Source: Escherichia coli (GTDB lineage Bacteria; Pseudomonadota; Gammaproteobacteria; Enterobacterales; Enterobacteriaceae). From it: 64,000 nucleotides of DNA. Location: the NCBI RefSeq assembly GCF_003991155.1, contig NZ_CP031293.1. The stretch is one strand, 5' to 3'. Below, piece by piece: positions 26,130-30,113 of the stretch. Within the stretch, counting starts at the first letter, position 1, and every line of letters starts with the position of its first letter. The notes under the pieces were generated by a model. That model saw only the letters and a program-made list of their open reading frames with translations, ran no database searches and had not been told where the DNA came from. Both the position numbers and the translations under genes were made by a program.

Positions 26130-28106
26130 ATGTCTGACGACATGTCTATGGGTTTGCCTTCGTCAGCGGGCGAACACGGTGTACTACGCTCCATGCAGGA
26201 GGTTGCAATGAGCTCCCAGGAAGCCAGCAAGATGCTGCGTACTTACAATATTGCCTGGTGGGGCAATAACTACTATGACGTTAACGAGCTGGGCCACATC
26301 AGCGTGTGCCCGGACCCGGACGTCCCGGAAGCTCGCGTCGATCTCGCGCAGTTAGTGAAAACTCGCGAAGCACAGGGTCAGCGTCTGCCTGCACTGTTCT
26401 GTTTCCCACAGATCCTGCAGCACCGTTTGCGTTCCATTAACGCCGCGTTCAAACGAGCGCGGGAATCCTACGGCTATAACGGCGATTACTTCCTCGTTTA
26501 TCCGATCAAAGTTAACCAGCACCGCCGCGTGATTGAGTCCCTGATTCATTCGGGCGAACCGCTGGGCCTGGAAGCCGGTTCCAAAGCCGAGTTGATGGCG
26601 GTGCTGGCACATGCTGGCATGACCCGTAGCGTCATCGTCTGCAACGGTTATAAGGACCGCGAATATATCCGCCTGGCATTAATTGGCGAGAAGATGGGCC
26701 ACAAGGTCTATCTGGTCATTGAGAAGATGTCAGAAATTGCCATTGTGCTGGATGAAGCAGAACGTCTGAATGTCGTTCCTCGTCTGGGCGTGCGTGCACG
26801 TCTGGCGTCGCAAGGCTCGGGTAAATGGCAGTCCTCCGGCGGGGAAAAATCGAAGTTTGGCCTGGCGGCGACTCAAGTACTGCAACTGGTTGAAACGCTG
26901 CGTGAAGCCGGGCGTCTCGACAGCCTGCAACTGCTGCACTTCCACCTCGGTTCGCAGATGGCGAATATTCGCGATATCGCGACAGGCGTTCGTGAATCCG
27001 CGCGTTTCTATGTGGAACTGCACAAGCTGGGCGTCAATATTCAGTGCTTCGACGTCGGCGGCGGTCTGGGCGTGGACTATGAAGGCACCCGTTCTCAGTC
27101 TGACTGCTCCGTAAACTACGGCCTCAATGAATACGCCAACAACATCATCTGGGCGATTGGTGATGCGTGTGAAGAAAATGGTCTGCCACATCCGACGGTA
27201 ATCACCGAATCGGGTCGTGCGGTGACTGCGCATCACACCGTGCTGGTGTCGAATATCATCGGCGTGGAACGTAACGAATACACGGTGCCGACCGCGCCTG
27301 CAGAAGATGCACCGCGCGCCCTGCAAAGCATGTGGGAAACCTGGCAGGAAATGCACGAACCGGGAACTCGCCGTTCTCTGCGTGAATGGTTACACGACAG
27401 CCAGATGGATCTGCACGACATTCATATCGGCTACTCTTCCGGCACCTTTAGCCTGCAAGAACGCGCATGGGCTGAGCAGCTTTATTTGAGCATGTGCCAT
27501 GAAGTGCAAAAGCAGCTGGATCCGCAAAACCGTGCTCATCGTCCGATTATCGACGAGCTGCAGGAACGTATGGCGGACAAAATGTACGTCAACTTCTCGC
27601 TGTTCCAGTCGATGCCGGATGCGTGGGGGATCGACCAGTTGTTCCCGGTTCTGCCGCTGGAAGGGCTGGATCAAGTGCCGGAACGCCGCGCTGTGCTGCT
27701 GGATATTACCTGTGACTCAGACGGTGCTATCGACCACTATATTGATGGTGACGGTATTGCCACGACAATGCCTATGCCGGAGTACGATCCGGAGAATCCG
27801 CCGATGCTCGGTTTCTTTATGGTCGGCGCATATCAGGAGATCCTCGGCAACATGCACAACCTGTTCGGTGATACCGAAGCGGTTGACGTGTTCGTCTTCC
27901 CTGATGGTAGCGTAGAGGTAGAACTGTCTGACGAAGGCGATACCGTGGCGGACATGCTGCAATATGTGCAGCTCGATCCGAAAACGCTGTTAACCCAGTT
28001 CCGCGATCAGGTGAAGAAAACCGATCTTGATGCTGAACTGCAACAACAGTTCCTTGAAGAGTTCGAGGCAGGTTTGTACGGTTATACCTATCTTGAAGAT
28101 GAATAA
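26130..28106 (+). CDS. speA: Biosynthetic arginine decarboxylase
   Basis: 658 aa from '[49 protein letters not shown]'. Confidence 0.96.
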
Positions 28107-28122
28107 TTAAGATTATTCCGCT

Positions 28123-28165
28123 GGCGGGGCGATTTATTTACGTAAATCGGCCCGCTTTTTTTTTA
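28123..28165 (+). terminator. Intrinsic terminator after speA
   Basis: 'gcggggcgatttatttacgtaaatcggcccgc' stem followed by a T9 run. Confidence 0.65.
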
Positions 28166-28251
28166 TATATTCTTAAAAATAATTTAGCTGCTTTTCTTAT
28201 TAAATAATCTCCCTACAATCGCTGCATTAATTAAATGCAGAGGGAACGGTT

Positions 28252-28983
28252 ATGAAAAAATGGAAAGTACGTAACGCGTTGATAGCATTAGCCGTGCTGC
28301 TGGCCGGTTGTTCCAGTAATGCGCAGTATAATAGCAGTGCATCGGGTAATGTCGGCACCGCCTGGGGTGGGGATGTGCACTCAACGGTTCAGGGCGTATC
28401 TGCTGAACGAGCCTGGCGCGATCCGGCAGAGATGATCGTTATTAGTTATTCGACTAATGTTCCTTCCGGCTACGACCGCGTTTATAGCATTCGTATTAAC
28501 GAACTGGAATATGCTATTCGCGATGGTAATTTTAAATCTCTACCAATTACGCGGGTTTATGATTCATCCAATAATGAACCACGCTATATTGTCCATGCCA
28601 GAGTCGGAATGAATTATCAATTATATGTCCGTAATTACAGTCGTAACACCAACTACGAGATCGTTGCTACGGTTGATGGCCTGGATGTGCTGAACGGCAA
28701 GCAAGGTTCGCTGAATAACAACGGTTATATTGTGAATGCCGGAGATTCGTTAGCGATTAAAGGATTCCGCAAAGATAAACATACCGAAGCGGCTTTTCAG
28801 TTCGCCAACGTTGCTGATTCCTACGCAGCCAATTCGGCGCAAGGCGATGTGCGTAATACCGGTGTAATCGGCTTTGCCGCCTTTGAATTACAAGGCCCGG
28901 CGAAAAACGCGCTGCCGCCGTGCTCTGGACAAGCCTTTCCGGCAGATAACAATGGCTATGCGCCGCCACCGTGTCGGAAATAG
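28252..28983 (+). CDS. Hypothetical lipoprotein (strain-variable gene between speA and speB)
   Basis: 243-aa ORF with signal peptide plus lipobox 'LLAGCSS'; Asn/Tyr-rich; C-terminal 'PPCSGQ...PPPCRK' Cys pair; good SD-to-ATG context; no gene at this position in K-12 as far as I recall. Confidence 0.7.
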   Translation: MKKWKVRNALIALAVLLAGCSSNAQYNSSASGNVGTAWGGDVHSTVQGVSAERAWRDPAEMIVISYSTNVPSGYDRVYSIRINELEYAIRDGNFKSLPITRVYDSSNNEPRYIVHARVGMNYQLYVRNYSRNTNYEIVATVDGLDVLNGKQGSLNNNGYIVNAGDSLAIKGFRKDKHTEAAFQFANVADSYAANSAQGDVRNTGVIGFAAFELQGPAKNALPPCSGQAFPADNNGYAPPPCRK

Positions 28984-29118
28984 CAACCTCGCTTGATGCC
29001 TCGCCCATTTAAGGCGATAATTAGCACAAACTTGTGTTTCGCAAATCCAACCCTTCCTCGTCGGGCCTAACGACGCGGAAGGGTTTTTTTATATCGACTT
29101 TGTAATAGGAGTCCATCC

Positions 29119-30039
29119 ATGAGCACCTTAGGTCATCAATACGATAACTCACTGGTTTCCAACGCCTTTGGTTTTTTACGCCTGCCGATGAACTTCCAGC
29201 CGTATGACAGCGATGCTGACTGGGTGATTACTGGCGTGCCGTTCGATATGGCCACTTCTGGCCGTGCGGGGGGGCGCCACGGTCCGGCAGCGATCCGTCA
29301 GGTTTCGACGAATCTGGCCTGGGAACACAATCGCTTCCCGTGGAATTTCGACATGCGTGAGCGCCTGAACGTCGTGGACTGCGGCGATCTGGTATATGCC
29401 TTCGGAGATGCCCGTGAGATGAGCGAGAAGCTGCAGGCGCACGCCGAGAAGCTGCTGGCTGCCGGTAAGCGTATGCTCTCCTTCGGTGGTGACCACTTTG
29501 TGACGCTGCCACTGCTGCGCGCTCATGCGAAGCATTTCGGCAAAATGGCGTTGGTACACTTTGATGCCCACACCGATACCTATGCGAACGGTTGTGAATT
29601 TGACCACGGCACCATGTTCTATACCGCGCCGAAAGAAGGTCTGATCGACCCGAATCATTCTGTGCAGATTGGTATTCGTACCGAGTTTGATAAAGACAAC
29701 GGCTTTACCGTGCTGGACGCCTGCCAGGTGAACGATCGCAGCGTGGATGACATTATCGCCCAGGTGAAACAGATTGTGGGTGATATGCCGGTTTACCTGA
29801 CCTTTGATATCGACTGCCTGGATCCTGCTTTTGCACCAGGCACCGGTACGCCGGTAATTGGCGGCCTGACCTCCGATCGCGCCATTAAACTGGTACGCGG
29901 CTTGAAAGATCTCAACATCGTTGGGATGGACGTAGTGGAGGTGGCTCCGGCATACGATCAGTCGGAAATCACCGCTCTGGCTGCGGCGACGCTGGCGCTG
30001 GAGATGCTGTATATCCAGGCGGCGAAAAAGGGCGAGTAA
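29119..30039 (+). CDS. speB: Agmatinase
   Basis: 306 aa '[56 protein letters not shown]'; ureohydrolase Mn-binding motifs 'GGDHFVT' and 'DAHTDT'. Confidence 0.96.
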
Positions 30040-30076
30040 GCGCCAGATAAGAGGCGCGCGGGTGATGTGCCATTAA

Positions 30077-30113
<37 letters not shown>

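Follow-up and report, generated by a model that had tools for sequence, protein, structure and literature searches.

In Escherichia coli K-12 (strain J53), the genes for biosynthetic arginine decarboxylase (speA) and agmatinase (speB) are separated by a gene-free spacer of 137 bp. In the 64,000-nucleotide stretch of E. coli DNA analysed here (the window), the same spacer is 1012 bp long and holds an open reading frame (ORF) for a putative lipoprotein, hereafter X. An initial annotation took this ORF for an extra gene inside the polyamine operon. The locus raises the questions of whether X is a genuine gene, whether it is transcribed together with its neighbours, which of the two states of the spacer came first, and what kind of protein X may be.

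The spacer, its lipoprotein gene and the transcription signals

The gene order in the window is metK (−), small yqg genes, speA (+), the spacer, speB (+), loiP (−) and tktA (+). The upstream neighbour speA (26130..28106, + strand) was identified from its ORF, from RefSeq, which annotates O157 and K-12 with the identical arrangement, and from the 97.6% amino acid identity of its product to Salmonella SpeA. The downstream neighbour speB (29119..30039, + strand) was identified from its ORF and the RefSeq annotation in O157 and K-12. The piece singled out by the initial annotation, 28107-29118, coincides exactly with the spacer between the speA end (28106) and the speB start (29119), and the length of about 140 bp that it gave for K-12 was also correct. 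The spacer contains a single long ORF, X, at 28252..28983 on the + strand; the remaining ORFs are short, antisense or out of frame. Between speB and loiP, a stretch on the − strand (30067-30108) matched naRNA4/CssrE of Rfam below threshold, scoring 37.7 bits where the gathering score is 59.5, and is probably a REP-type element.

The ORF, the alignment of homologues, the predicted structure and the composition all indicated that X encodes a 243-aa lipoprotein precursor. Its translated N-terminus is MKKWKVRNALIALAVLLAGC. Residues 1-19, MKKWKVRNALIALAVLLAG, form a signal peptide with a positive n-region and a hydrophobic h-region, and a lipobox of the pattern [LVI][ASTVI][GAS]C is read directly as LLAG followed by Cys20 (L-A-G-C20). 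The codon of Cys20, the candidate for lipidation, is at 28309-28311, and Ser21 (the +2 position) and Ser22 follow it. A residue other than Asp after the lipidated Cys leads to Lol sorting to the outer membrane; thus, the Ser at +2 predicts outer-membrane sorting of X. By these features, X is predicted to be an outer-membrane lipoprotein processed by signal peptidase II. A Shine-Dalgarno sequence, GAGGG (28240..28244, + strand), was read directly 7 nt before the ATG, and a purine-rich AGGG or AGGA is kept at the same position in other genera. Behind the signal peptide, the protein consists of a short Ser/Asn-rich tether (residues 21-32), a beta-sandwich (residues 33-214) and a C-terminal AFPxD..GYAPPP motif between Cys224 and Cys241. 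Asn, Ser and Tyr make up 9.9%, 8.2% and 5.8% of the residues, respectively, and Cys is found at positions 20, 224 and 241. The initial annotation had described precisely such an ORF, with a signal peptide, a lipobox, a good ribosome-binding site, an Asn/Tyr/Ser-rich product and a C-terminal Cys pair.

It had also named no domain, and indeed a Pfam search of X gave nothing even at E ≤ 10. There was no match to PADLOC or to PDB sequence profiles, and the best matches to PHROGs had E ≥ 0.038 and lay mostly over the signal-peptide region. NCBIfam gave no match beyond the signal peptide; the sole one, ActS, covered residues 2-46 with 16.7 bits against a cut-off of 375. The same protein is present in RefSeq and UniProt (e.g., WP_000758914.1 and A0A1Q4PKQ4) at 97-100% identity from thousands of genomes, under the product names 'hypothetical protein', 'lipoprotein' or 'membrane protein', with no function, family name or literature attached. 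A literature search for X or any member of its family found no experiment or publication. The existence of X is no novelty, as public genomes have listed it for years as a hypothetical lipoprotein.

Subsequently, the transcription signals around X were examined. Directly downstream of speA, RNA folding and covariation identified a predicted intrinsic terminator, T1 (28123..28164, + strand), composed of a stem-loop (28123-28156) and a nine-T run (28156-28164), the first base of which is used in the final pair of the 14-bp stem. The fold has −23.7 kcal/mol (z −4.35), and none of 200 shuffled sequences was as stable. In 10 enterobacterial sequences, 92% of the cells were paired and compensatory changes were observed in 7 of the 14 pairs; the covariation score was matched by 0 of 500 shuffles, and slid controls fell to 27-55% pairing. 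On the strength of folding and covariation, we regard T1 as the genuine terminator of speA.

An A/T-rich tract (28156-28209) lies upstream of a −10-like hexamer, TACAAT (28214..28219, + strand), which was recognized as a putative X promoter element by its conservation across genera. T28214, A28215 and T28219 (TAnnnT) are invariant in 10 sequences from seven genera, in surroundings that vary, and sit 33 nt upstream of the X start codon. A search for a −35 element gave no convincing candidate, and a simple promoter scan did not report TACAAT. We infer that X has its own promoter, from which transcription would begin near 28226 and give a leader of about 26 nt. The AT-rich stretch that the initial annotation assigned to X is real and contains the conserved −10-like element. 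A palindrome, CTGCATTAATTAAATGCAG (28222-28240; perfect 7-bp arms CTGCATT and AATGCAG around AATTA), abuts the X Shine-Dalgarno sequence, and other genera have different G/C-rich complementary arms at this position. A 5'-UTR hairpin formed by the palindrome was considered and dropped, because RNAalifold found no consensus structure in 12 sequences and the predicted transcription start lies inside the 5' arm.

Between X and speB, RNA folding revealed a terminator-like hairpin, T2 (29049..29092, + strand), which also appears as inverted repeat I1 and consists of a hairpin (29049-29085) and a U7 run (29086-29092). Its fold has −26.4 kcal/mol (z −4.72); it is nearly nucleotide-invariant in Escherichia, Citrobacter and Klebsiella, with three variable stem positions, and is retained in K-12. 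The promoter scan also reported a promoter-like element upstream of speB, TTGATG-17-GATAAT (28993..29021, + strand). Its GATAAT is kept in Escherichia, Citrobacter and Klebsiella, its CTTGA in the first two of these genera, and the short allele of K-12 has both. Within 28993-29092, the promoter-like element is followed about 27 nt later by the T2 hairpin and U7, which end 26 nt before the speB ATG. This region had no Rfam match, and it is possibly more than a terminator, such as a speB leader or attenuator.

The initial annotation placed X inside the polyamine operon and considered co-transcription with speB, which these signals do not favour. X is bracketed by T1 and T2, and co-transcription with speB would accordingly need read-through of T2; terminators on both sides together with the conserved −10-like element do not support an obligatory coupling. 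Judged by its signals, X would not be a member of a speAB operon, as predicted terminators stand between the genes and X has a conserved −10-like element of its own. Terminators are rarely 100% efficient; hence, read-through from speA into X and speB is possible. On balance, X looks like a transcription unit of its own.

Distribution and evolution of the locus

When 5426 complete E. coli genomes were searched with the spacer by Megablast, 3550 of them (65%) contained it at full length, with X; the others matched only the last 77 nt before speB. The X coding sequence was found in 3556 genomes, 3550 of which had at least 80% coverage at 95-100% identity. The K-12-type short spacer was present at full length and approximately 100% identity in 1867 genomes. 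With 3550 long and 1867 short spacers among the 5426 genomes, the locus is thus essentially biallelic. Carriers of X include ST131, O157:H7 (EDL933), O111, O91:H21 and APEC strains, and non-carriers include K-12 derivatives and a BL21-type strain. The initial claim of a genuine lipoprotein gene missing from K-12 was thereby confirmed, the ORF being conserved and the K-12 spacer gene-free. Disrupted copies of X are rare in E. coli. A 'truncated' protein cluster (P0025) had raised the possibility of widespread pseudogenisation, which was rejected since the cluster consists mostly of partial ORFs at contig ends.

The short allele was then compared with the long one. The 60 bp after the speA stop codon in K-12 J53 (locus L002, 3441-3500) have their homologue in the 60 bp that follow X (window 28984-29041), and the two segments are diverged by roughly 40%, as estimated from an alignment by eye, sharing only the skeleton CTTGA...GATAAT...AAATCCA. 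The speA and speB flanks of the two alleles differ by about 2.5-3.5%. The short allele did not simply arise from the long E. coli allele by a recent deletion, since its 60 bp are so much more diverged than these flanks. An 11-mer, TTTTTTTATAT (repeat family D2), occurs directly after both terminators, at 28158-28168 and 29084-29094. A deletion between direct repeats was also rejected, because this sole flanking repeat predicts another junction. The divergence of the 60 bp relative to the flanks and the near identity of the short spacer in 1867 genomes point to a short allele that may be old or imported from another lineage.

Comparison with other genera indicated the direction of the change. 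The order speA-X-speB was observed in Escherichia, Citrobacter, Klebsiella, Kluyvera, Phytobacter, Kosakonia, an Enterobacter-labelled isolate and Intestinirhabdus. In Salmonella, X directly follows speA and is itself followed by a GntR/sugar island; in Entomohabitans, speB follows X and another ORF separates X from speA. Among the fetched loci, which cover about 10 enterobacterial genera, speA was immediately upstream of X in 19 and speB immediately downstream in 17. X was also found in E. whittamii, E. albertii, E. fergusonii and cryptic Escherichia lineages. The check across Escherichia and Salmonella that the initial annotation had proposed thus found X in both, and 'extra' has the wrong polarity for a gene that adjoins speA in 19 enterobacterial loci and is carried by other Escherichia species and by 65% of complete E. 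coli genomes. Because X stands at speA across genera and in other Escherichia species, the X-containing state is ancestral and K-12 represents a derived, gene-less state. Besides, Citrobacter sp. 18056 (loci L021/L022, 5001-5729) has a 63%-identical copy away from speA, between two unannotated ORFs; an identical twin of this contig is filed under Chryseobacterium, which suggests a mislabelled or contaminated assembly.

The reading frame of X is intact in all 10 genera examined. Pairwise dN/dS values (Nei-Gojobori) were 0.21 for O157, 0.07 for E. whittamii, 0.06 for Salmonella, and 0.11-0.14 for Kluyvera and Klebsiella. The protein shares 74% amino acid identity with that of Salmonella, whereas SpeA shares 97.6%, and SpeB is 98-99% identical to its counterparts in Citrobacter and Klebsiella. 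By these comparisons, X is clearly constrained and under purifying selection, yet it evolves much faster than speA and speB. In the history that we propose, X would have been placed downstream of speA in an ancestor of Enterobacteriaceae. The E. coli lineage including K-12 and the B strains would have lost it by way of one short allele, which later became widespread. Our confidence in this anatomy and evolution of the locus is high.

The protein family and its predicted fold

A word-indexed search yielded 289 homologues of X at E ≤ 1e-3, and no match listed carried a Pfam domain. Those from Enterobacteriaceae were 58-75% identical and the Providencia/Trabulsiella-type ones approximately 40%; Variovorax, Acidovorax and Paracoccus were also represented. 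A scan of species-representative genomes found the family in 276 species, including Proteus, Gilliamella, Neisseria, Kingella, P. aeruginosa PA7, Ralstonia, Burkholderia and Inquilinus. When a family profile was searched with HMMER against 1.84 billion representatives, 4183 clusters at 50% identity were obtained at E ≤ 1e-3 and 3257 at E ≤ 1e-10; among the 150 clusters listed of the 4183, almost all were single-domain proteins of 230-380 aa. Pfam searches of 64 family members found nothing beyond signal-peptide-level matches.

Cys20 is invariant in the 64 homologues, and its conservation is at least 90% across a diverse set of 117 representatives, whose average identity to X is about 34%. In these 117 sequences, R53, Y122, G143, G171, R173, F182 and G204 are invariant, and the nearly invariant residues include C20, T36, Y66, N128, E136, D142, D145, Y159, Y191, F229, P230 and P240. 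The Cys224/Cys241 pair is limited to Enterobacterales-type members and missing in most of the family. Tether length ranges among homologues from about 12 to more than 140 residues; in the longer members, Pro/Ala-rich linkers of up to about 140 residues separate the N-terminal signal/anchor region from the domain. Furthermore, three of the members listed (P0234, P0247 and P0250) are circular permutants. In these, the conserved core comes first and is followed by a basic linker, and the 'LGTxYGE...' segment, which is N-terminal in non-permuted members, lies directly beside the C-terminal 'AFPxE.RYAPPPP' motif.

Outside Enterobacteriaceae, where the neighbours were identified partly by eye from their sequences, without a family search, the gene context varied. 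The X homologue lies between metJ upstream and a beta-barrel OMP gene downstream in Providencia, and beside thrS and recO in Gilliamella, an MltG-like gene in Neisseria, phospholipase C in P. aeruginosa PA7, ahcY in Ralstonia and a Ctp protease gene in Saezia. In Variovorax it is situated in the histidine operon between hisD and hisC (L008, 6001-7205; L069, 5672-6028; and other loci). No recurrent partner gene and no immediately adjacent polyamine gene were found in the loci examined outside Enterobacteriaceae. The speA linkage, being confined to Enterobacteriaceae, argues for historical placement rather than functional coupling. In Trabulsiella guamensis, ynfD (DUF1161) and ynfC (UPF0257) flank a paralogue of 40% identity (L010, 6001-8096), and a speG-like acetyltransferase gene is two genes away, a second and possibly coincidental closeness to a polyamine gene.

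We also attempted to characterize the fold. An AlphaFold2 model of X built with an alignment of 64 sequences had a pLDDT of 83.2 and a pTM of 0.81, with a single all-beta domain of about 13 strands spanning residues 33-214. Confidence is low for the signal peptide and tether (residues 1-30) and for the C-terminal tail, with a pLDDT of 52-63 for the C-terminal motif. A Foldseek search against AFDB50 gave 336 matches; the best 50 listed were essentially all of the same unannotated '(outer membrane) lipoprotein' family, and the matches listed include members from Verrucomicrobia and Myxococcota.

On the predicted model, X also shares its fold with Pfam DUF7918, a fungal domain to which further beta-sandwich modules of fungi are related. 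The DUF7918 HMM matched neither X nor any of its 64 relatives in sequence, and the fungal DUF7918 proteins, unlike X, are no lipoproteins and frequently have RING or GRF zinc fingers as fusion partners. DUF7918 is itself without an assigned function; accordingly, the likeness yields a fold, not a mechanism. In addition, the peptide-binding MATH/TRAF domains of USP7, SPOP and TRAF3 have an antiparallel beta-sandwich topology that the model may share, and several MATH/TRAF entries recur among its top PDB and AFDB structural matches. As modelled, the fold of X is DUF7918-like with a topology that may be distantly MATH-like and gives no transferable biochemical activity, and a MATH/TRAF likeness would suggest a peptide-docking type of function.

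Possible roles of X

Taken together, we consider it probable that X is an ancestral, independently transcribed gene for an outer-membrane-tethered periplasmic lipoprotein of the binding or adaptor type; the binding or adaptor role as such is proposed tentatively, from the model. Signal peptidase II would cut the precursor, Cys20 would be lipidated, and Lol would sort the protein to the outer membrane, where the short flexible tether would hold the single beta-sandwich of about 180 residues in the periplasm. In enteric members, a Cys224-Cys241 disulfide probably brackets the proline-rich C-terminal motif. The sandwich would then be a non-catalytic module for an envelope protein or ligand, not a polyamine enzyme, and the candidate binding elements are a polar patch (R53, Y66, Y122, N128, E136, D142, D145, Y159, R173 and Y191) and the C-terminal motif. 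LpoA/LpoB, NlpD/ActS and RcsF are tethered outer-membrane lipoproteins that regulate envelope enzymes. They resemble X in having a lipobox, a non-Asp residue at +2, a variable low-complexity tether and a single small globular domain, but there is no homology between them and X.

The same polar patch could equally mark a catalytic site, with invariant Arg and Tyr (R53, Y122 and R173) and near-invariant Glu, Asp, Asn and Tyr among the 117 sequences. X would then be an enzyme of the periplasm that works through E136, D142 and D145, perhaps a hydrolase of some envelope polymer, for which the large, single-domain family also speaks. We consider an enzyme unlikely, and prefer the binding or adaptor module.

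A tie to the arginine-to-putrescine pathway, as an envelope factor that binds agmatine or putrescine or assists export and is made with SpeB by read-through, is quite unlikely. The place between speA and speB is conserved across Enterobacteriaceae, the Trabulsiella paralogue lies two genes from a speG-like gene, and the acidic E136, D142 and D145 could bind polycations. Nevertheless, X has terminators on both sides and its own −10-like element, no polyamine enzyme gene adjoins it in Providencia, Proteus, Gilliamella, Neisseria, Ralstonia, Paracoccus or Variovorax, and it diverges far faster than SpeA and SpeB. Moreover, the speA/speB pathway yields putrescine without X in K-12 and in a third of E. 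coli.

That dispensability in a third of E. coli would suit a protective protein, an inhibitor or of the immunity type, directed at enzymes that attack the envelope, such as lysozymes, proteases or type VI amidase effectors. So would a small secreted beta protein that is encoded by a singleton gene and changes more rapidly in sequence than the housekeeping proteins encoded on either side. The linear motif of highest conservation lies within the Cys224-Cys241 loop, which in such a protein would be disulfide-bracketed and insert into the target; this Cys pair, however, is absent from most of the family. In Variovorax, the X homologue is followed by a gene for a secreted two-Cys protein of 118-124 aa (118 aa in the case that bears on this reading) with a weak Pfam match to Rap1a (T6SS immunity), but this neighbour is confined to Variovorax and close relatives (Xenophilus). 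With no match to PADLOC or another defence or immunity family and no effector gene nearby, we judge an inhibitor improbable. Finally, the view that X is an island gene of recent acquisition or an ORF in decay and without function, as could be supposed from the GC content of X (48.5% against 55-56% for speA and speB), its absence from K-12 and the rare disrupted copies, is refuted by the synteny in about 10 enterobacterial genera, the intact frame and the dN/dS of 0.06-0.21, and only chance-level repeats and no mobility genes were found at X.

The binding or adaptor lipoprotein that we prefer is an uncharacterised member of a familiar class, the outer-membrane lipoproteins, and no new kind of system. 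What is new is that X is ancestral at this locus, that the locus is biallelic with a divergent short allele, and that predicted terminators bracket the gene; the very large family, its circular permutants and the link to the DUF7918 fold are also new. A more far-reaching reading makes X the founding, tractable member of a very large lipoprotein family (about 4000 clusters at 50% identity, no Pfam entry, some members permuted), with a sandwich possibly homologous to fungal DUF7918 and a specific envelope function, such as docking of a partner through AFPxD..YAPPP, that may be coupled to arginine/agmatine/putrescine metabolism in Enterobacteriaceae. This reading in full is a long shot, and if it were true, the natural presence/absence polymorphism in E. 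coli would make X directly testable.

X is carried by most Enterobacteriaceae, including pathogenic E. coli lineages (O157:H7, ST131 and O111) and Salmonella. It stands for a sizeable family that matches nothing in Pfam, NCBIfam or the PDB and has a confidently predicted fold. Because K-12 is without X, this lipoprotein has escaped classical E. coli envelope genetics, and the natural gene-plus and gene-minus alleles at one locus constitute a clean comparative system. The K-12-centred view of speA-speB is corrected as well: as far as the sequence signals indicate, the ancestral locus would consist of three units, each with its own terminator, and not of a compact speAB operon.
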